A stretch of DNA of 64,000 bases from Thermodesulfobacteriota bacterium (GTDB taxonomy: Bacteria; Desulfobacterota_D; UBA1144; Nemesobacterales; Mycalebacteriaceae). Below the pieces are notes generated by a model. The model did no database searches and was not told the origin of the DNA. It worked only from the letters and a program-made list of their open reading frames with translations. Positions 2,316-36,247 of the stretch are shown here, piece by piece (the first letter of the stretch is position 1; each line of letters begins with the position of its first letter). Location of the stretch: contig OZ245366.1 in the NCBI GenBank assembly GCA_965226585.1, positions 487,423 to 551,422 on the forward strand, read 5' to 3'. The position numbers were made by a program, and so were the translations under genes.

Positions 2316-4112
2316 TCACTTTCCAGCCCCCAATTCCTTAAAAATCTTCCCGATTTCCCTGTCGCTTTTCTTTGCCTCTTTCTCAAGCATTGCCAGCTCC
2401 GCCCATATATCCGGTATTGAACGAAGAACCTCTTTCTCCGTTGTGTCTATGTAACGAGACGGCGAAAGGTTGTAGTCATTCTCCGCCGCCTTTTTGACGG
2501 TTATGACAGTTGAAAAACGCTCTTCCTCTTTCCATTTGGAAAAGACGTTCTCAATCCGCTTTGAACCCTCATCCGTCAAATGGTTCTTCGGGCTGACCTT
2601 TTTGAACTCGTTGCTCGCGTTGATAAGAACGATTTTCCGCTTTCTCGCGGCACTTTTGTTTTTATTCATAATGATTATGACACCCGCCGCCGCCGCATTG
2701 TAGAAAAGGTTGTCGGGAAGAAGGATTACGCCCTCAATCAAATCTTTATCAACAAACCATTTGCGTATTTTCTTTTCCTTGTCCTCTCCCGATGCCCCGC
2801 TTCCGCGTGTTACGGCTCCGGTGTCTATCACTACCGCCGCTCTCCCCCTGCTACTCATAGATTTTGCCGTGTGCTGAAGCCATGCCCAGTCCGCCTTTCC
2901 CGTTGTTGAACCGCCCTGCGACTCAAATCTGTCAAATTGGTCGTCTTCGTAAGTCCGGACATTAAACATCTGATTCCACATCGGATTGGCGACAACAATG
3001 TCAAAAGTCTGAAGCCCCCCCGTTTTATTGCGAAACTTCGGGTTCGTCATTGAGTTGCCCCGCACAATCTCACAGTCCATGTCGTGTATGATGGCATTCA
3101 TTCGCGCCATCGCGTAGTTGTCCGGTCCAAGTTCCTGCCCGGACAGTTTTAAGGGGATTCCCTTTTTCACATCGGGATAACGCTCGCGAAACGCAAGTTC
3201 GCACTTGATAAGCAGACCCGCAGACCCGCAAGCATAGTCATAAACGGTTTCGCCCTGAGTCGGCTTCATAATCCGCGCCATAAGCCACCCGACTTCCGTG
3301 GGCGTGAAAAACTCGCCCGCAGTCTTTCCCGAACCTTCCGCAAACTTTCTCAAAAGATATTCGTAACAACGTCCAATAAAATCCGGCTCCACATCGTGAA
3401 GACCAAGCCGGTATCTTGGCTTTGAAAACTTTTCTATTACTTCCTTGAGCGACTCGTCGCTTACCTCCCTCTCTCCGCCGGTTGTTTTGTTGTAGTCAAC
3501 AAGATCTATGACACCGTTTAACAACGGATTTCTTCTGGCGACCGCGCGCATCGTTGTAGTTATCTGCTCTCCCAGAGTTTTCGGCTTCTTTCCTTTCCGC
3601 CAGTTGAAACTTTTTCTGCCGCTCAGAACTTCCCATCTGGTTTCCGGCGGCAGATAAAAGTGGATGTAACCCTCTCCCCCGCTGACCATCTCCTCCGCCT
3701 CTTCCATACTCCCGAGTTTTTCCGCAATGCGGTTCATTTCGTCTTCAAACACATCCGAGAGGCGTTTGAGGAAAACGAGCGGAAGGAGAAAGTTTTTGAA
3801 CTGCGGCGCGTCTTTTTCACCCCTGATTGAACAGGCGGCGTCCCACAGCATCGTTTCCATCATCTTTCTGCTCAAAACATCTTGCCCGGTTTTGAGCCTG
3901 CGAACAGGCGATTCCGGGTCAGACTGTTCCGCTTTCTCCGCCATTGTCATTATTCTCTTGTGATACTTTTTGTGCGGAGACCGGCGTCCGTTTTCCCAGC
4001 CGTTCAGAGTGGAAAACGAAACGCCCAGCTTCGCGGCAAGGTTCTCCTGAGACAGATTCATCTTTTCTCTGATGCCCGCTATAATCTCTGATATGTTTTC
4101 TTTTTCCGCCAT
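2316..4112 (-). CDS. hsdM: N6-adenine DNA methyltransferase of the type I R-M HsdM family with an N-terminal XRE-type helix-turn-helix
   Basis: An HsdM_N-like region (MLWDAACSIRG...FLLPLVFLKRLSD) is followed by a SAM-binding motif (YDYACGSAGLL), the catalytic VANPMW (NPPY-type) motif and an HsdM C-terminal signature (YNLSPSRYID). The first 50 aa or so (LSQENLAAKLGVSFSTLNGWENGRR) look like an HTH_XRE. Confidence 0.8.
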   Translation of the reverse strand: MAEKENISEIIAGIREKMNLSQENLAAKLGVSFSTLNGWENGRRSPHKKYHKRIMTMAEKAEQSDPESPVRRLKTGQDVLSRKMMETMLWDAACSIRGEKDAPQFKNFLLPLVFLKRLSDVFEDEMNRIAEKLGSMEEAEEMVSGGEGYIHFYLPPETRWEVLSGRKSFNWRKGKKPKTLGEQITTTMRAVARRNPLLNGVIDLVDYNKTTGGEREVSDESLKEVIEKFSKPRYRLGLHDVEPDFIGRCYEYLLRKFAEGSGKTAGEFFTPTEVGWLMARIMKPTQGETVYDYACGSAGLLIKCELAFRERYPDVKKGIPLKLSGQELGPDNYAMARMNAIIHDMDCEIVRGNSMTNPKFRNKTGGLQTFDIVVANPMWNQMFNVRTYEDDQFDRFESQGGSTTGKADWAWLQHTAKSMSSRGRAAVVIDTGAVTRGSGASGEDKEKKIRKWFVDKDLIEGVILLPDNLFYNAAAAGVIIIMNKNKSAARKRKIVLINASNEFKKVSPKNHLTDEGSKRIENVFSKWKEEERFSTVITVKKAAENDYNLSPSRYIDTTEKEVLRSIPDIWAELAMLEKEAKKSDREIGKIFKELGAGK

Positions 4113-26945: not shown

Positions 26946-28037
26946 TCACCCCATCTCATACCCCGTACTCCTTCCGCCTTCTTTGCTTTTCTTTAATATC
27001 TTCAACTCAATCAGCGCGTTAATATCCCTTTGCGCGGTGTCTTGGGAGCATTTTCCCATCTTTGCCCACTTTGACGAAGTGAGTTTGCCCTTGAAGTTTC
27101 CGTCCAGAAGCAAGTTCAAAATCTTTGTCTGCCTGCTGTTGAAAGGCACCTCAGCGTATTCCTCCCAAAAACGCGCCTTATGCAGGATTGCCGACAGCAT
27201 TTTGTCGGAACCCGCTATGGAACGTTTGAGACAACCCAGAAACCAACTCAGCCATTTTGTAATATCAACTCCGCTGTTTTGCGTTTCCTCAAGCTGTCTG
27301 TAGTAGTCCTGCCTCTCTTCCATTATCTGCGTGGACATACTGTAAAAACGTTGCGATGTTTCCTCGGAACGGGCAAGAGCCATCTCCGCTATCGCCCTTG
27401 TTGTGCGCCCGTTCCCGTCATCAAACGGGTGGATAATTACAAACCACAGGTGAGCAACCGCCGCTTTAATCACCGGATCCATTGAAGACGGCGAGTTAAA
27501 CCACGAAAGAAAATCATCCATCTCCTTCGGAACCCGCTCTGCGGGCGGAGCAACAAAATGAACCCTCATCCTTCCCTCGCGCCCCGATACAACCTGAACT
27601 CCGTGAGTACGCCACTTTCCGGTTGTTATCTTGTGAAAACCACTGCGCCCGTCCGGGAAAAGAGAAGCGTGCCAGCCGAAAAGCCGCTTTTTTGTGAGCG
27701 TTTTGTCAAAATTTGTTGTGGCGTCAATCAGTATCTCCACTATGCCGTCCACCTCACGCCCGTACGGTTTGCCCTCATACGTATCTATTCCCAAACGCCG
27801 CGCAACGGATGAACGAACCTCCTCAACATCAAGAAACTCCCCCTCAATTTCACTGGTTTTGATAATCTCTCCCGACAGAGTCCGGAAAGCGGCGTCACGC
27901 CTCAGATTAAAACCGAGACCGCTCATGCGTCCCAGCAAAAGCCCCTGCGTGCGGTGAACCTCCGCCAAAAGAGCAGACAACTCGCCGTCATCCCACTTCA
28001 AAAGGGGCCAACCCTTTTCTTCCCATAAATACGGCAT
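26946..28037 (-). CDS. Fic family protein (DUF4172-type N-terminus, C-terminal winged-helix domain)
   Basis: It carries the Fic motif HPFDDGNGR and an inhibitory-type motif TSEIEGE, with a C-terminal wHTH (KILNLL...SSKWAKMGKCSQDTAQRDINAL). I placed the start at MPYLWEE (ATG at 28037, RBS AGAGG). The 14-codon extension in the ORF track overlaps the operator-like repeats. Confidence 0.85.
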   Translation of the reverse strand: MPYLWEEKGWPLLKWDDGELSALLAEVHRTQGLLLGRMSGLGFNLRRDAAFRTLSGEIIKTSEIEGEFLDVEEVRSSVARRLGIDTYEGKPYGREVDGIVEILIDATTNFDKTLTKKRLFGWHASLFPDGRSGFHKITTGKWRTHGVQVVSGREGRMRVHFVAPPAERVPKEMDDFLSWFNSPSSMDPVIKAAVAHLWFVIIHPFDDGNGRTTRAIAEMALARSEETSQRFYSMSTQIMEERQDYYRQLEETQNSGVDITKWLSWFLGCLKRSIAGSDKMLSAILHKARFWEEYAEVPFNSRQTKILNLLLDGNFKGKLTSSKWAKMGKCSQDTAQRDINALIELKILKKSKEGGRSTGYEMG

Positions 28038-28046
28038 ATTGTGAAC

Positions 28047-28212
28047 CTCTGCGGAGATTAATGTTGCTATTCTCCGCATATTTTGCGGAGAATATAGCCC
28101 GCATTCACCGCAAAATCAACCTTAATCTCCGCACATTCTGCGGAGATTAGCAATTTCTATGACTCATAATTTGGGGGTTTTATGAGTCATAGAACAGTTT
28201 CCTATGACTCAT
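28047..28212. promoter_or_regulatory. Cluster of three perfect palindromes plus half-sites in the Fic 5' region
   Basis: The first palindrome is ATTCTCCGCA-tattt-TGCGGAGAAT (28069-28093). The second is TAATCTCCGCA-cattc-TGCGGAGATTA (28123-28149), with a half-site TGCGGAGATTA (28050-28060) overlapping the Fic RBS. The third is CTATGACTCATAA-N10-TTATGAGTCATAG (28157-28192), with a third CTATGACTCAT copy at 28202-28212. Confidence 0.55.
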
Positions 28213-30288: not shown

Positions 30289-32691
30289 TTAGAACAGATA
30301 CTTCAGGCGCAAGCCAATCCTTCTCGGCTCCGTAACGGTTCTGGCGTATATGCGGATGGAAAAGCCGTCTCTGAGGCTGAATAATGGGTCGTTCAGAAGT
30401 GGCACGCCGTTCACGGCGCTGGTTGCCGAGTATTTGTTGAACAGGTTTTCCGCGAATGCGGAGAGCTTCATCCGTCCGACTGAAACCGAAGCCGAAAGGT
30501 TGTGAACCCCGTAGCCGCCGAATTTGTCGCGGTAGTTCCCGTGCCCTCTGAAGAATTTGGATGTGCGCGAGTATCCGTAGAGAAAGTCCACGGGCGCGCC
30601 CGCCAGAGCGGTTTTGTAGAGCGCGAGCAAACTTGCCGTGTGCTCCGGCGCGTACGGGATTACCTCGTTATGCCCGTCTTCGGTATTCAGATAGCTCCAC
30701 GAGCCGCGAATCTCCGCCTCTTCAAACGGCTTCAACACAAGCGAGAATTCCAGACCGGCGGTTTCGGCTTCCCCCTCATTAACGGTGATTGCCTCGCCGC
30801 TTCCGGTGGATGCGGCAATCGTCTGAATGTCTTTCCATTGCGCGCTGAAAACCGCCGCGTCCGCTTCCACCGCGCCGCCAAGCCATGAGCCGCGAAACCC
30901 GATTTCGTAATTTGCCACGCTGTCCGGCATGAAGCTCACCTCATTCGGCTGAAGGCAACTTGCCTGCACGGTTTCGCCTTCCCCGGCGCCGAGATGCTGA
31001 CTGCAGACCGGAAGCCGGTTGCGCCCGCCCAGCCGGTAGCCGCCCGCCCGCGTGAAATACGCGAAAAAGTTTTCCCGCATTTTCATCTCCATTTTCACGC
31101 TGTAGACCGCGCCGCTGTCTTCACTGCCGAATTTTGAGTAGGGCGAGTCGTGCTCTCCGGTCCCGCCGTTTTCTCCGGGCGTGAACGGAAAGCGGGTGAA
31201 CCCTTCAACCGTTCCCTCATACGAATACCACCGCCCGCCCGCGCTGATTTTCAGCCACCGGTCGAAAAGCGAGCGCGAAACCTCGCCGAACACGGCTTTT
31301 TCCGTATTCCGGTTGCGCTCTTCCGTTTCATATTCAAGCGTTTTGTCTGCGGCGTCAAAATCCGCAAGATTGAAAAAATCCACAAGTCCGGGCGTGAACT
31401 CCTTTTGCGCGTCCGTATCGTCATTCTCCTCATAGAAAAGCCCCGCCGCAAATCTCCACTTGCCAATGTCATCTGACTCGGCGCGTATTTCAAAGCGCGT
31501 GTTTTCAATCTCAAAGTTGTCAACCGTAAGGGCGGAAAACTCCCGGAAACAGAAAGCGGCGGCGGTGGCGGGGTTACCGCACACACTCAAATCCGGCTGT
31601 CCGTTTTCGAGATAGGGCGAATAGTCGGCGTCATTTTCGTCTGCGTAGGGCGCAACCGTGCCGTGGGGCAGTAAGCCGCCGATGCCGAGCCACAGGAGCA
31701 GAAAATCCGTCTGGTCGCGCCAGCCCTCATACGAAAACTTTGAGTGTCCCGCCACGCCGGTGAACAGAACGGGACCTTTTTTCCATTTGAGGTTCGCGCT
31801 CCATATTTCGTTTTCAGAGTCGCCGGGTTCAAGGTAGCGGAATGCGGATTCATATTTTCCGGTGTTAAAATCGGAGATTGTGTGGTTTGCCCGCCGCGCG
31901 CCGGATTCCTGTTTTTGTCTGTCGTATGACACGGCTGCCTCAATGTCTTCTGTCAACCGCCAGAGCAGTGAAAGGCGCGAGTACAGGGCTTTCTCATCAT
32001 CCGCGTCTTTTTTCCTGCGCAGGTTGTCCGCCCGTGCGCTTTCGCCAAAATCCCTTGGGTCTGGCAGGGAAACTCCCGGTTCCCGCAGAAGGTAGTTGTA
32101 GTCAATAAATCCCGGCTCTCCGCTCCGCCGCACCGCGCCGCGAAAGGCAAGGCGGTTTTTCAAAACGGGCAGGTTGACGATTGCGTCCGCTTCGTAGCCG
32201 TATCCGCCGCTCTTACTGCGAACATCTCCGCCCGCGCGGACGGACAGAGAAAATTTATCGGTATCCGGCTTGCGGGGAATGTAATGCACCACGCCGCTCA
32301 TAATGCCGGAGCCGTGCGCGACTCCCTGAGGTCCCTTAACGATTTCAACGCGTTCAAGGTCAAGCAGTTTCGGGTCTATGCCGATAACCGGAAGTTCGCC
32401 GAGAAAGGCGGCGGAATGCGAGAAGCCGCGTATCAGCCGCAGGTTTTCTTCCCGTCCGCCCGTGTCAAAAACTGAAAACCCCGCAACCCACGGCGACAAG
32501 TCCGAGATGTTGTCCGCGCCGAGCCGGTCAATTAAATCGCCGTCAATCAGAGTTACGGCGAAAGGTGTTTCAAAGAAGTTTTCCGTGTGCCATGTTTCCC
32601 TTGAGTAACCCGGCTCTGCGGTAAGGAGCAGGGCAAGGGAGACAAACAAGAAGTGGGTAAAAATGAGAGTTCTCGTCATGATGTGCTTCAC
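30289..32691 (-). CDS. TonB-dependent outer-membrane receptor
   Basis: It has a signal peptide, an N-terminal plug, a long beta-barrel of about 800 aa and a C-terminal aromatic (LRLKYLF). The substrate is unknown. Confidence 0.85.
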   Translation of the reverse strand: MKHIMTRTLIFTHFLFVSLALLLTAEPGYSRETWHTENFFETPFAVTLIDGDLIDRLGADNISDLSPWVAGFSVFDTGGREENLRLIRGFSHSAAFLGELPVIGIDPKLLDLERVEIVKGPQGVAHGSGIMSGVVHYIPRKPDTDKFSLSVRAGGDVRSKSGGYGYEADAIVNLPVLKNRLAFRGAVRRSGEPGFIDYNYLLREPGVSLPDPRDFGESARADNLRRKKDADDEKALYSRLSLLWRLTEDIEAAVSYDRQKQESGARRANHTISDFNTGKYESAFRYLEPGDSENEIWSANLKWKKGPVLFTGVAGHSKFSYEGWRDQTDFLLLWLGIGGLLPHGTVAPYADENDADYSPYLENGQPDLSVCGNPATAAAFCFREFSALTVDNFEIENTRFEIRAESDDIGKWRFAAGLFYEENDDTDAQKEFTPGLVDFFNLADFDAADKTLEYETEERNRNTEKAVFGEVSRSLFDRWLKISAGGRWYSYEGTVEGFTRFPFTPGENGGTGEHDSPYSKFGSEDSGAVYSVKMEMKMRENFFAYFTRAGGYRLGGRNRLPVCSQHLGAGEGETVQASCLQPNEVSFMPDSVANYEIGFRGSWLGGAVEADAAVFSAQWKDIQTIAASTGSGEAITVNEGEAETAGLEFSLVLKPFEEAEIRGSWSYLNTEDGHNEVIPYAPEHTASLLALYKTALAGAPVDFLYGYSRTSKFFRGHGNYRDKFGGYGVHNLSASVSVGRMKLSAFAENLFNKYSATSAVNGVPLLNDPLFSLRDGFSIRIYARTVTEPRRIGLRLKYLF

Positions 32692-32728: not shown

Positions 32729-32757
32729 TTGACACAAAACGGCTTTTGAAACACAAT
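32729..32757 (+). promoter_or_regulatory. Sigma70-like promoter for tRNA-Val
   Basis: TTGACA (32729-32734), a 17-nt spacer and CACAAT (32752-32757). The tRNA 5' end is at 32772. Confidence 0.4.
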
Positions 32758-32771
32758 AGGCGGGCTTAAAA

Positions 32772-32843
32772 GAGCGCGTAGCTCAGCGGGAGAGCGCTTG
32801 CCCGACACGCAAGAGGTCGCTGGTTCGATCCCAGCCGCGCTCA
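32772..32843 (+). tRNA. tRNA-Val (anticodon GAC inferred); no CCA encoded
   Basis: It folds as GAGCGCG-TA-GCTC-AGCGGGA-GAGC-G-CTTGC-CCGACAC-GCAAG-AGGTC-GCTGG-TTCGATC-CCAGC-CGCGCTC-A. The loop CCGACAC gives GAC at positions 34-36, but position 33 is C instead of the near-universal U. Confidence 0.75.
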
Positions 32844-33280
32844 TGGAGGGAAATCTATTGCTAAAGGATTACCAAGAAAGGACAGATTTTGGGTACATAT
32901 TTCCCGCCAAGAGAAAGGACGGAAGTATGATTATGCTTGTCAGATTTGGAAGACATGATGGGAAGGGGTATGACTTTGAGCTACATTGTATATCTGCCGA
33001 ACACCACAAGGAATGGTTAAAATTAGGACACGCACCATCAGACATTAAGACTGTTAGGCAACACGTCAGTGTTAGTCCACATTGGGAGGACAGCAGTAAG
33101 TGGGTAGTAACTGATGTATCTGCGGATTACGACCAAAAAATTGTAGACTCAAGGGAAGATGCTTTTGCTGAGGCAATTCGTGCAATGACGGAAGATGATG
33201 ACCCTATAAGGGAAAAGATTCCCGATGTTAATCACAGTATTAAATGGTGGATGGATGAAACCGCAAAGTTTGATTGGTGA
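32843..33280 (+). CDS. Hypothetical protein P1 (island cargo)
   Basis: This AT-rich ORF begins at the last nt of the tRNA (MEGNLLLKDYQ...). An alternative start is MIMLVRF at 32927. No recognisable domain was found. Confidence 0.4.
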   Translation: MEGNLLLKDYQERTDFGYIFPAKRKDGSMIMLVRFGRHDGKGYDFELHCISAEHHKEWLKLGHAPSDIKTVRQHVSVSPHWEDSSKWVVTDVSADYDQKIVDSREDAFAEAIRAMTEDDDPIREKIPDVNHSIKWWMDETAKFDW

Positions 33281-33282
33281 AA

Positions 33283-33948
33283 ATGAACTCAGATCTTATA
33301 GAAGTCATCACAACTTACGCTACCAAGTCTCACGGAGACCTGAATGCCTTGTTATCTGGAAAGTCAAAAGACAACATCACTTCTATTCTTGTTGACCTTC
33401 TCACCACTTACTACAATGACAAAAACTCATCAACTTTAAGAGAGTTTGTTCTGGTGTCCCTGAGTGGTTTTGAACAGAACCTCGGTAAAATCGGCTATAA
33501 CGGTTACAAGCATGAGAGTATTGGTAGCAAGACAAAATATTGCGAAGCGAAACCCAAGAATGTCAACACAAACGATCCGAAGCCAAAGAAGCTGAATGGC
33601 GGGGGAAACTTTACGGACTACACTTGGGCGAGACTGGAAAAAGATAAGTCGTCTAACCCAACAATGCTTGTTGGGGGCTTTATAGACGGACGCCTGATTT
33701 ACATATTCAAGTTTCCTTTCAATTCAAAGGATTTTGTTGATAGGCTGGAGCACCAGTTAAAAAACAAGTTTCCTGACGGAGACGTAAGTGGATACTTTCT
33801 CAGAAGTGCTTCTTTTGGCTTAAAACACTACAAAAGTATTGCTAATTTGGATGTTGAAGTTTTTGTAAAAGAGCAAGATTTACCTAAATATGAAAACAGC
33901 ATTACAAAAGGGTTATACTCTTTCATAGAGGAGTCCTTTACCGAATAA
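33283..33948 (+). CDS. Hypothetical protein P2, possible restriction endonuclease partner of the downstream methyltransferase
   Basis: Its start is 2 nt after the P1 stop, and its stop overlaps the MTase ATG (TAATG). It is AT-rich. A possible PD-(D/E)xK-like segment GYKHESIGSKTKYCEAK is present. There is no secure domain call. Confidence 0.4.
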   Translation: MNSDLIEVITTYATKSHGDLNALLSGKSKDNITSILVDLLTTYYNDKNSSTLREFVLVSLSGFEQNLGKIGYNGYKHESIGSKTKYCEAKPKNVNTNDPKPKKLNGGGNFTDYTWARLEKDKSSNPTMLVGGFIDGRLIYIFKFPFNSKDFVDRLEHQLKNKFPDGDVSGYFLRSASFGLKHYKSIANLDVEVFVKEQDLPKYENSITKGLYSFIEESFTE

Positions 33949-34829
33949 TGGAACTCAAGCCTGAACAGTACAGAAACAAACTTATATGTGGTGATACTTT
34001 CGAGGCTTTGCGGTCAATCCCAAACGGTGTTGTAGATGTTGGTGTAACCTCTCCTCCATATAACAAGAAAGAAAAAAACAAGGGCTGGTTGGTAAAGAAT
34101 GTTGTCTACTCTGAATACAAGGACAAAGTTCCTGAAAACAAGTATCAGGCAAATCAAGTTGCTGTTTTGAACGAAATCCACCGTATAACCAAAAGCGATG
34201 GGTCTTTTTTCTATAATCACAAAATCAGGTGGGAAGATGGAGAGATGTTTCACCCTATGGATTGGTTGAGAAAGACCGATTGGGTTGTTAAGCAAGAAAT
34301 CATCTGGGATAGGACTATCGCCGCGAATATAAGAGGGTGGAGATATTGGCAAGTTGAGGAGAGGATTTACTGGCTTTACAAGCCGATTGGTACAAACAAG
34401 AAAGGGAGAGAGCTGGCATCAAAGGATGCAAAGTTAACCTCAGTGTGGCGAGCAGTTCCTGAAAACAACAATCCTCATCCCGCTCCTTTTCCCCTTTGGC
34501 TTCCGGCAAGGATCATCATTTCACTTTTAGAAGGTAAAAAAAGCGGTCTTGTTTTAGACCCGTATGTTGGTAGTGGCACAACTGCGGTTGCCGCAAAATT
34601 GCTCGGCTTTGATTATCTGGGTGTGGATATTGGAGAGGAGTACATTGACTACGCTGAAGAACGTCTTGCAAATGCTGAAAGAGAAAGAAGCAAGATTATG
34701 GGTGAGCAGAGCCTTCATAAAGTCCACAAGACCTTTAAGTCCAGAAAAGAAAGGGGAGAAAATACTGGCAAATATCGTAAAGAGGAAGAATCTAACAAGC
34801 CTCTAACACTCTTTGAGCATAGGAAATAG
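33948..34829 (+). CDS. DNA methyltransferase, beta-class (SPPY motif; N4-cytosine or N6-adenine)
   Basis: VGVTSPPYN comes first, then a C-terminal SAM motif LDPYVGSGTTAVAA. Its size and layout match beta-class amino-MTases. Confidence 0.85.
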   Translation: MELKPEQYRNKLICGDTFEALRSIPNGVVDVGVTSPPYNKKEKNKGWLVKNVVYSEYKDKVPENKYQANQVAVLNEIHRITKSDGSFFYNHKIRWEDGEMFHPMDWLRKTDWVVKQEIIWDRTIAANIRGWRYWQVEERIYWLYKPIGTNKKGRELASKDAKLTSVWRAVPENNNPHPAPFPLWLPARIIISLLEGKKSGLVLDPYVGSGTTAVAAKLLGFDYLGVDIGEEYIDYAEERLANAERERSKIMGEQSLHKVHKTFKSRKERGENTGKYRKEEESNKPLTLFEHRK

Positions 34830-34880
34830 TGCGCTAAGTAAGGGTAATTTGCTAGGGTGGTTTTTATTTTGAGTTTGAAT

Positions 34881-35285
34881 ATGGAAGACAAAGTCCAGAA
34901 AGATTATGATTACAGGCAGGGACTTATTTCCACAGAAACCAGTCTCAGACATTCTTATGACAAATTAGTAGTTGCCATTGCAACGGGTACGGTTTGGATA
35001 AGTGTTTTCTTTGTTGATGGTAGGGAGATGATAGTCTCAGAAAGGTTTATCTTCTGGGGCTGGTTTTTTTCAATTCTTTCCATAGTTTCCGTGTTGTTCT
35101 CAGTCTATTTAGGTATCAAAGCACACAGAAAAGCAGTTGAGCAAAGGGATAAAAACCCTAGCCAGACACACAGGCTAGGTGGAAATTTTTCGCTTTTGTC
35201 GAGCTATTTTCACAACTCTGCCTTAGCCTTTTTGATTGTCGGTATGTGTTTTATATGTGCATTTGTCTTTTTTAATATAAGGTAG
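34881..35285 (+). CDS. Small membrane protein (3 predicted TM), unknown function
   Basis: Hydrophobic segments VVAIATGTVWISVFFV, FIFWGWFFSILSIVSVLFSVYL and LAFLIVGMCFICAFVFF. It is AT-rich. I placed the start at MEDKVQ. Confidence 0.4.
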   Translation: MEDKVQKDYDYRQGLISTETSLRHSYDKLVVAIATGTVWISVFFVDGREMIVSERFIFWGWFFSILSIVSVLFSVYLGIKAHRKAVEQRDKNPSQTHRLGGNFSLLSSYFHNSALAFLIVGMCFICAFVFFNIR

Positions 35286-35300
35286 TACAATTCGGGTGGC

Positions 35301-35465
35301 ATGAAGGACGATAAACAAAATCCTCCAACTCCTACAGAGCCAGAGGAGCGTCCCACTCCTAAGCCTGTTGGGGACAACAGAAGGGATCAGTCTTGGGAAC
35401 CACCGCCACCACCCCCGTCGCCACCATCACCCCCGCCAAAAGAAAATCCTAATCAAGATGATTAG
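35301..35465 (+). CDS. Possible proline-rich 54-aa ORF (speculative)
   Basis: It encodes MKDDKQNPPTPTEPEERPTPKPVGDNRRDQSWEPPPPPPSPPSPPPKENPNQDD. It is below the ORF-track cutoff and sits between the membrane-protein gene and the tRNA. Confidence 0.15.
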   Translation: MKDDKQNPPTPTEPEERPTPKPVGDNRRDQSWEPPPPPPSPPSPPPKENPNQDD

Positions 35466-35520
35466 ATGGACAGTTGGTTTTTTGACAACGCTTGTTATTT
35501 CAAAGCATATACGAACTTCA

Positions 35521-35592
35521 GGCCCCGTAGCTCAGGGGGAGAGCGTTCGCCTCACACGCGAAAGGTCGTTGGTTCAATTCCAACCGGGGCCA
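35521..35592 (+). tRNA. tRNA-Val (anticodon CAC); no CCA encoded
   Basis: It folds as GGCCCCG-TA-GCTC-AGGGGGA-GAGC-G-TTCGC-CTCACAC-GCGAA-AGGTC-GTTGG-TTCAATT-CCAAC-CGGGGCC-A. It is preceded by TTGACA (35482-35487). Confidence 0.85.
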
Positions 35593-35627
35593 AGCTAGGC
35601 TAGGATAAGAAATATAGGGGATTGATT

Positions 35628-36173
35628 ATGTTTTCTATTGTTTTTGCATCAATTGCTCTCTTGATTTCTGTTTTCACCCTTTACTTACAGTTTTTTCATC
35701 ATCCGCGCAGGATCAGAGTTGTCAGCCTCGGGATACACACCCCTCACGGACAAAGGTTTGCTATATGTAATGGAGGCAAGCAAGCAGCTTATCTGGTCAG
35801 CATATCGGCAAATTATATGTTTCCGCTGAATCAAGGAACTCTTTTTTCGCCGGTTGAGAAAATACAAACGGTAAGTACCAGTTTTATCCAACCTGATGGT
35901 TTCCTCGAATTTTTCTATCAAGATACACAAGAAAATTTTCGGAAAGCTACGGACACATACTCATCTCTTGCGAGGTCGGGTAAGGTTCAAAACAAAAGAG
36001 TGAGCATCATGATTGATGTTTCCATTTCATTTTCTGATGGCGTAATATTCTATCATCAGTTTGAATCTGCTGTGGTCTCATTCAACGACCAGCATGCTCT
36101 TCAAGCAATGTCTTACAATGAGGTTGGTCTTGATTTTTTAAAGAGTGCAAAAGAAAAAGGCTTTTCTAAGTGA
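35628..36173 (+). CDS. Hypothetical protein with an N-terminal TM helix (AT-rich, island-like)
   Basis: MFSIVFASIALLISVFTLYLQFF, followed by a soluble domain with no motif. AGGGG sits 6 nt upstream of the ATG. Confidence 0.4.
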   Translation: MFSIVFASIALLISVFTLYLQFFHHPRRIRVVSLGIHTPHGQRFAICNGGKQAAYLVSISANYMFPLNQGTLFSPVEKIQTVSTSFIQPDGFLEFFYQDTQENFRKATDTYSSLARSGKVQNKRVSIMIDVSISFSDGVIFYHQFESAVVSFNDQHALQAMSYNEVGLDFLKSAKEKGFSK

Positions 36174-36247
36174 AATCCGTTGAATAGTTTGGTAAAAACG
36201 GCAAGGTATGTCTCAAGTTTCTTCTGAAAACCATCGTATCTCTCACT

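Follow-up and report, generated by a model that had tools for sequence, protein, structure and literature searches.

The locus described here raises the question of how many of its genes make up a restriction-modification (R-M) system. It lies in a stretch of 64,000 nucleotides (nt) of contig OZ245366.1 (positions 487,423 to 551,422, forward strand), which belongs to the assembly GCA_965226585.1 of a Thermodesulfobacteriota bacterium; this whole stretch is called the window hereafter, and positions are given within it. Three open reading frames (ORFs) follow one another on the same strand. The original prediction, made from the letters of the sequence, had proposed that they form a cassette in which two small proteins, P1 and P2, could be either a heteromeric nuclease or a nuclease plus its controller, accompanied by an N4-cytosine/N6-adenine methyltransferase (MTase). 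The three genes read as follows:

32843-33280, + strand: P1 ORF, 145 amino acids (aa), ATG at 32843-45 and TGA at 33278-80, as read from the sequence.
33283-33948, + strand: P2, a candidate restriction endonuclease, 221 aa, ATG at 33283-85 and TAA at 33946-48.
33948-34829, + strand: MTase, beta-class N6_N4 type, 293 aa, ATG at 33948-50.

The three-gene layout stands, whereas the lengths reported previously for P1 (146 aa) and P2 (222 aa) have to be corrected to 145 and 221 aa. Direct reading of the sequence also bears out both junctions, i.e., a spacing of 2 nt between the P1 stop codon and the P2 ATG, and an MTase ATG that shares its A with the TAA stop of P2 (TAATG).

Our analysis indicates that P2 and the MTase very probably constitute, by themselves, a classical two-gene Type IIP R-M system, of which P1 is not a subunit. 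The MTase matches the Pfam family PF01555 (N6_N4_Mtase) with an E-value of 1.4e-31 and the Type II MTase model of PADLOC (MTase_II) with an E-value of 2e-35. As had been noticed before, VTSPPYN (motif IV; SPPY at residues 34-37) precedes the C-terminal LDPYVGSGTT (motif I; GSGTT at residues 207-211), which is the circularly permuted beta-class order, in which motif IV, the target recognition domain (TRD) and motif I follow one another. The closest relative of solved structure is the N4CMT of bdelloid rotifers (8S9N/8S9M; E-value 2e-43, 38% identity), whose PDB codes are assigned in PMC10406627, and M.PvuII (1BOO) appears as a weak PDB match (2e-4). These matches, together with the fold of P2 and the linkage of both genes described below, uphold the proposal that the cassette holds an R-M system with a beta-class MTase of the N4-cytosine/N6-adenine type.

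The nearest bacterial relatives of N4CMT have been reported to be MTases of TCGA and CCSGG (PMC8885841), and the recognition site was examined by comparison with the REBASE beta-class MTases collected in Supplementary Data 1 of that paper. The MTase of the window is 55-62% identical, over the full length, to five entries labelled TCGA:

REBASE, TCGA-labelled relatives: M.PmaEXORF210P, M.Tru12173ORF8030P, M.HciORF741P, M.Hwi430ORFCP and M.TbaTF1ORF1101P.

It shares 44% identity with a Prochlorococcus phage MTase, 33-38% with the CCSGG enzymes, and less than 30% with the enzymes of GTAC, CGCG, CCCGGG, CTCGAG and CCGG. One of the five entries, M.HciORF741P, has exactly the sequence (100% identity) of the MTase whose gene comes right after a P2 homologue in Helicobacter cinaedi CCUG 18818; this homologue is 49% identical to P2 and is labelled 'hypothetical' by NCBI. 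The system of the window is thus the orthologue of a catalogued, putative TCGA system, and the pairing of a related MTase with a similar upstream gene, for which the original prediction had suggested looking in REBASE, does exist. The MTase is therefore probably specific for TCGA, and probably modifies the N4 of cytosine, as suggested by the SPPY motif, by N4CMT being the closest structure and by relatives such as M.NciI, which give N4-methylcytosine (m4C). TCGA is also scarce around these genes: 33 copies are observed in the window against 114 expected (observed/expected ratio, O/E, 0.29), and over 556 kb from 73 carrier loci the ratio is 0.48, the second lowest of the 16 four-base palindromes.

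At least 674 homologues, with lengths near 220 aa, make up the family of the second component, P2; the few that bear a source name are called 'hypothetical'. No match was found for P2 in Pfam, NCBIfam or PADLOC at E <= 1, nor in the PDB by sequence or profile at E <= 10, and the plasmid collection contained no homologue; the only library match was phrog_3210, a family listed as of function not known. The fold was more informative. An AlphaFold (AF2) model built on an alignment of 52 sequences reached a predicted local distance difference test (pLDDT) of 91.1 and a predicted template modelling score (pTM) of 0.88, and Foldseek placed the PvuII endonuclease at 11 of the 15 top PDB entries, with probabilities of 0.96-1.00 and template modelling (TM) scores of 0.54-0.64 normalised to PvuII. 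The further matches, i.e., the catalytic domain of DpnI, SPARDA DREN, ThaI, Hjc and RecU, are all PD-(D/E)XK proteins. The fold comparison that the original prediction had proposed for both small proteins thus led to PvuII in the case of P2 and to no match in the case of P1. As modelled, P2 is a PvuII-like PD-(D/E)XK-fold nuclease, whose activity is predicted from this fold. Since it matches no curated family by sequence, it has to be regarded as a structural relative of PvuII and not as a member of the PvuII family.

The most conserved block of the family is K69-x-G71-Y72-N73-G74 ... C87-E88-x-K90-P91-x-N93, which in P2 reads G71-Y-N73-G ... C87-E88-A-K90-P-K-N93. It pairs with G56-N-D58 ... 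E68-L-K70-S-I-N73 of PvuII in an hhalign comparison that is not significant and that served only to see how the columns pair. The segment C87-E88-x-K90-P91 is invariant in 116 family members, and so are D46 and D112. The stretch '...HES...KYCEAK' had been pointed out as PD-(D/E)xK-like: its ExK, within CEAK, is indeed invariant in these 116 sequences, while HES is not conserved.

The association of both genes was then followed across genomes. A genome scan with one genome per species yielded 203 relatives of P2, and the best 80 loci were searched by tblastn. An MTase orthologue (54-74% identical) abuts P2 in 78 of these 80 loci, and the remaining two contigs break off no more than about 120 nt from P2. 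In the metagenome contexts an N6_N4 MTase adjoins P2 in all seven cases, six with the order P2-MTase and one, located beside a prophage (L005), with the order MTase-P2; in another locus (L052) both genes are convergent. Such variation in order and orientation is what an R-M pair would be expected to show, in contrast to a fixed operon of other function. The bacterial hosts of the pair include Poribacteria, Patescibacteria/CPR, Elusimicrobiota, WOR-3, Dehalococcoidia, Bacteroidota and Campylobacterota, the latter represented by H. cinaedi, H. labetoulli and Campylobacter gastrosuis, and the archaeal hosts are Thermoplasmata and DPANN archaea. No gene is conserved upstream of the pair in the other metagenome loci. 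In one locus (L059, 4001-4719) P2 is split by a frameshift into two overlapping ORFs next to an intact MTase, which is the usual decay route of R-M pairs and leaves an apparent orphan MTase. Judged from the gene order, this linkage is the hallmark of Type II R-M systems, with P2 alone as the R gene. The conserved unit is P2 plus MTase, a classical Type II pair, and the idea that the cassette is an uncharacterised R-M variant in its architecture was not sustained.

Homologues of P1 or P2 lacking an MTase neighbour had been named as an observation that would speak against an R-M system. None occurs within the close P2 family; the only case is a 34%-identical homologue in the Synechococcus phage ACG-2014d (L010, NC_026923.1, 29568-30164), which belongs to phrog_3210, adjoins a helicase gene and carries the canonical Asp (GRDAKD...EVKPKN). 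The ACG-2014d genome contains no MTase of the clade of the window; in this T4-like cyanophage the homologue stands alone as a PvuII-fold nuclease. Conversely, members of the MTase clade occur without P2 in the phages P-TIM68, S-CAM22 and S-RIM12. This uncoupling in phages leaves the reading of the close family unaffected.

Some carriers show additional genes next to the pair. In Poribacteria (L006/L015, 5665-7222) a second N6_N4 MTase of 310 aa and then a 205-aa protein without Pfam match come directly after P2-MTase; they are probably a second R-M pair in tandem, with another unannotated nuclease. In a TARA ocean contig (L008/L009, 3360-3926) a GIY-YIG_2 protein of 188 aa (Pfam, 1.3e-24) is encoded directly upstream of P2-MTase, and it may be a further nuclease tied to that copy.

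Several points weigh against the assignment of P2 and the MTase to a TCGA-specific R-M system. The TCGA site is itself a REBASE prediction (marked 'P' and 'N4N6'). The depletion of TCGA is not specific, as GGCC, GATC and CTAG show a depletion equal to or greater than that of TCGA in a comparison made among carrier loci only. In the window (1-64000) the O/E ratios are 0.11 for GGCC, 0.18 for GATC, 0.24 for CTAG, 0.29 for TCGA, 0.41 for AGCT and 0.49 for ACGT, and this strong avoidance of palindromes suggests a pressure from several R-M systems in the genome. The SPPY motif does not guarantee m4C, since an SPPY enzyme is labelled as producing N6-methyladenine (6mA, m6A) in the REBASE-derived list, and H. 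pylori methylates TCGA at the adenine with a beta-class enzyme (PMC3936762). When the H. cinaedi MTase was used as query, no H. pylori protein appeared among the top 120 homologues (at least 62% identity), a result that is uninformative on the kinship with M.HpyAX. The literature search found no characterised TCGA/m4C enzyme of this MTase group and no H. cinaedi methylome, nor any biochemical or methylome data for a member of the P2 family. With regard to the fold, the Foldseek E-values of P2 are modest (about 3e-3), the hhalign of the P2 family against the PvuII sequence gives an E-value of 0.42, and P2 has no match to the PvuII family of Pfam. Where PvuII has D58, 113 of the 116 members have Asn (N73 in P2) and three have Asp; an Asn at the first catalytic acid is unusual and the active site could be non-standard. 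Finally, P1 looks truly coding and tightly abuts P2, so that a local accessory role is possible for it.

This Asn is the best argument for the alternative that P2 is an inactive, altered PD-(D/E)XK-fold protein that binds DNA as a partner of the MTase, e.g., as a specificity or regulatory factor: the Asp is found, apart from the three members, only in the solitary phage homologue, and the literature gives no experimental cleavage for any member of the family. Against it, E88, K90, D46 and D112 are strictly invariant, and variant PD-(D/E)XK sites exist in active restriction endonucleases, such as MspI (D-N-K), BglII (D-E-Q) and Cfr10I/NgoMIV. Moreover, toxic R genes usually end up like the frameshifted P2 of L059 beside an intact MTase, and the strict co-occurrence in both orientations and the depletion of TCGA in the hosts fit a cutting enzyme. 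We consider improbable, for these reasons, that P2 lacks nuclease activity.

The role of P1 is the other aspect that had to be clarified, and here the upstream sequences are needed:

32729-32757, + strand: promoter-like site TTGACA-17-CACAAT, detected by consensus scan (10/12 matches), upstream of tRNA-Val(GAC).
32772-32843, + strand: tRNA-Val (anticodon GAC), detected by ARAGORN, left border of a low-GC island.

The search of P1 against 5.8 billion proteins returned only P1 itself. A full phmmer search, free of word index, against 1.84 billion cluster representatives returned P1 and one marginal match to a 765-aa protein (E-value 7e-4, in multiple stretches), which was treated as noise, and a PDB sequence match was attributed to chance. 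P1 had no match by tblastn across 89 related loci, nor in Pfam, NCBIfam, PADLOC or PHROG, and no helix-turn-helix (HTH), nuclease or other domain was recognized in it. Its single-sequence AF2 model had a pLDDT of 57.6, with residues 1-28 predicted to be disordered, and this low-confidence model gave no fold match. The annotated P1 ATG begins with the last base of tRNA-Val(GAC), and a Shine-Dalgarno-like AAAGGA lies 7 nt 5' of the ATG at 32927, which would give a P1 of 117 aa. Since the ATG at 32843 takes its A from the end of the tRNA, residues 1-28 appear disordered and the AAAGGA site precedes 32927, the latter is more probably the start codon.

The comparison with a Dadabacteria metagenome-assembled genome (GCA_026708425.1; L001) is the most direct, since its P2 and MTase are 80 and 83% identical to those of the window and its synteny is identical: thiE, the gene of a PALP enzyme, tRNA-Val(GAC), P2, MTase, a membrane protein, a Pro-rich ORF, tRNA-Val(CAC) and thrS. 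In this genome the P2 ATG lies 8 nt after tRNA-Val(GAC), and the approximately 435 nt that carry P1 are absent. As far as can be judged from these searches, P1 is an ORFan specific to one genome and outside the conserved R-M system. At the same time, it looks like a real coding sequence, given that its composition follows the coding-like order of GC content by codon position GC1 > GC3 > GC2, with a purine fraction of 0.69 at codon position 1, that its in-frame codon likelihood is the best among the three frames, and that a stop-free run of its length turns up in 3% of 1-kb shuffles. Its codon usage is that of the island and not that of the host.

These properties bear on the proposal of a three-component P1-P2-MTase system, in which P1 would either serve as the second subunit of a nuclease similar to BslI or BbvCI or control P2. 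In its favor, only 2 nt separate the stop codon of P1 from the ATG of P2 and no terminator intervenes (indeed, no terminator-like site was seen on the + strand from tRNA-Val(GAC) to the end of the MTase), and P1 has the composition of a coding sequence and the codon usage of the island instead of that of the host. Besides, the GGTGA located just 5' of the P2 ATG falls inside P1, and translation of P2 may then depend on ribosomes finishing P1. Nevertheless, P1 has no homologue in either collection, is absent from 89 of 89 related loci and from the syntenic site of the Dadabacteria genome, and shows no HTH, nuclease or other domain, no confident fold and no fold match, while in many phyla the P2-MTase pair is conserved as a complete unit that lacks P1. 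The resemblance to the heteromeric enzymes BslI, BbvCI and Bpu10I is superficial, being limited to the presence of two small ORFs ahead of an MTase gene; in those systems both R-subunit genes are conserved together, whereas P1 occurs in a single genome. Its interpretation as a C protein or as a second subunit was discarded because P1 displays neither conservation nor domains, and we regard a three-component system as very improbable. Any role of P1 would be local, and its 2-nt stop-start spacing may couple the translation of P2 to that of P1. The case illustrates that a tight stop-start spacing alone is weak evidence of functional partnership.

It has to be mentioned that in the Dadabacteria genome an ATG sharing its A with the last base of the tRNA opens a mini-ORF of three codons (L001, 2598-2612; ATGGAATTATGA), whose TGA overlaps the ATG of P2 (ATGA). 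In the window and in this relative alike, an ORF running from the 3' end of the tRNA terminates at, or next to, the start codon of the R gene. Such an ORF may bear on the translation of the nuclease from a tRNA read-through transcript.

The least credible alternative, an orphan or regulatory MTase with P1 and P2 as unrelated island cargo, finds a precedent in the beta-class relatives that are orphans in the cyanophages P-TIM68, S-CAM22 and S-RIM12 and in rotifers, but it can hardly be entertained when P2 and the MTase clade abut in 78 of 80 genomes of many phyla and the fold of P2 is that of a restriction endonuclease.

In the two-gene Type IIP system that we favor, the MTase would methylate a short palindromic site, for which TCGA is the most likely sequence and the N4 of cytosine the most likely position, and P2, presumably as a homodimer, would cut the same site when it is unmethylated, destroying incoming phage or plasmid DNA. 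The TAATG overlap would couple the translation of the MTase to that of the nuclease, so that synthesis of the toxic enzyme would always bring with it that of the protective one. Transcription would probably reach both genes by read-through from the promoter of tRNA-Val(GAC): the promoter-like sequence, also kept in the Dadabacteria relative, probably drives a tRNA-(P1)-P2-MTase transcript. The insertion of P1 downstream of the tRNA and ahead of the nuclease gene would be peculiar to this genome and would alter at most the translation of P2. The nuclease activity of P2, its dimeric state and the co-transcription with the tRNA are steps that we infer.

Among the known systems, PvuII is the nearest in structure. 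Its nuclease is the best structural match of P2, both share the motif layout G-x-D/N ... E-x-K-x-x-N, and both systems combine a small nuclease with a beta-class, SPPY-type N6_N4 MTase as a two-gene Type IIP system. The differences are also clear, because there is no detectable sequence homology between the nucleases, P2 exceeds PvuII by about 65 residues and has an additional helical bundle at its N-terminus, D58 of PvuII is replaced by Asn, and the predicted site is TCGA instead of CAGCTG. The cassette also lacks a C (controller) gene, unlike the PvuII system, which has the controller C.PvuII. In the putative TCGA group of REBASE, the H. cinaedi MTase likewise sits immediately after a P2 homologue; the host in our case is a Dadabacteria-like symbiont, and only the copy of the window has the extra P1. 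The TaqI and M.HpyAX systems have the same predicted site as that of the window. M.TaqI is a gamma-class m6A enzyme, and M.HpyAX is of beta class yet produces m6A. Blunt cutting is typical of the PvuII/EcoRV branch, and an enzyme with the PvuII fold would be expected to cut differently from TaqI. N4CMT (8S9M/8S9N/8S9O), an N4-cytosine MTase of bacterial origin, shares with the MTase the SPPY motif and the beta-class order, and differs in being a eukaryotic protein with a chromodomain, relaxed specificity and no nuclease partner (PMC10406627; PMC8885841).

On the whole, P2-MTase represents a routine case, one more Type II R-M system in a genome of the sponge-symbiont type with heavy palindrome avoidance. 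Its analysis provides a large and widespread family, which general databases call 'hypothetical' (at least 674 members, including those of H. cinaedi and C. gastrosuis), with a fold and a function. No model of Pfam, NCBIfam or PADLOC covers this family, and thus the R gene escapes the annotators of defence systems, which count the MTase as an orphan. The novelty is limited to a nuclease family that is unannotated outside REBASE-type resources and to its Asn-for-Asp variant. A bolder view, which we hold as doubtful, is that the P2 family is an uncharacterised PvuII-fold lineage with Asn for Asp that maybe cuts TCGA unlike TaqI, e.g., leaving blunt ends, with P1 acting maybe as a translational gate. 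If true, the combination of TCGA specificity with a PvuII-like cleavage geometry could provide a useful new enzyme, and the family would bring in a new neoschizomer along with an active site that departs from the canonical one.

The genomic setting of the cassette is described by three further features:

34857-35285, + strand: small predicted membrane protein, 134-142 aa, with a weak match to DUF4199 only.
35301-35465, + strand: small Pro-rich ORF, 54 aa, with a counterpart in the Dadabacteria genome, outside the R-M pair.
35521-35592, + strand: tRNA-Val (anticodon CAC), detected by ARAGORN, the right-hand tRNA bracket of the R-M segment.

The two tRNA-Val genes are 82% identical over 61 nt. 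Across positions 32850-36200, approximately, the GC content is 0.37-0.46, compared with 0.50-0.61 in the flanking housekeeping genes; the left flank encodes thiE, the PALP enzyme and a TonB receptor, and the right flank thrS, infC, rpmI and rplT. Due to this low GC content with respect to the flanks and to the two tRNA-Val genes that bracket it, the P2-MTase cassette is the cargo of a small (about 3.3 kb) acquired island at a tRNA-Val pair. A search for direct or inverted repeats marking the insertion of P1 or the ends of the island found only the two tRNA-Val genes. The membrane protein has a counterpart of 139 aa in the Dadabacteria genome and is absent beside P2-MTase in the loci L004-L008; since it is kept in that relative and not with P2-MTase elsewhere, it is island cargo outside the R-M pair.

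A second low-GC ORF is comparable to P1. Directly after tRNA-Val(CAC), positions 35622-36173 (+ strand) encode a protein of 183 aa with a GC content of 0.39 and no match in Pfam, NCBIfam, PADLOC or PHROG. It is absent from the Dadabacteria genome, where thrS comes next after tRNA-Val(CAC), and like P1 it is genome-specific and inserted just 3' of a tRNA-Val gene. A further local difference in gene content beside the island is the TonB-dependent receptor (Plug plus beta-barrel) encoded at 30289-32691 (- strand), between the PALP enzyme gene and the tRNA-Val, which is absent at that position in the Dadabacteria genome. In Candidatus Hopanoidivorans cymbastelae (L045) a tRNA-Val(CAC) is located at 3803-3881 with P2-MTase about 120 nt downstream, which hints that the R-M pair is recurrently associated with tRNA-Val loci. 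Finally, 5 kb upstream of the island of the window, positions 26946-28079 (- strand) encode a Fic/DOC protein with an N-terminal DUF4172 (Pfam, 5.5e-18 and 1.4e-29) that carries the motif HPFDDGNGRTTR.

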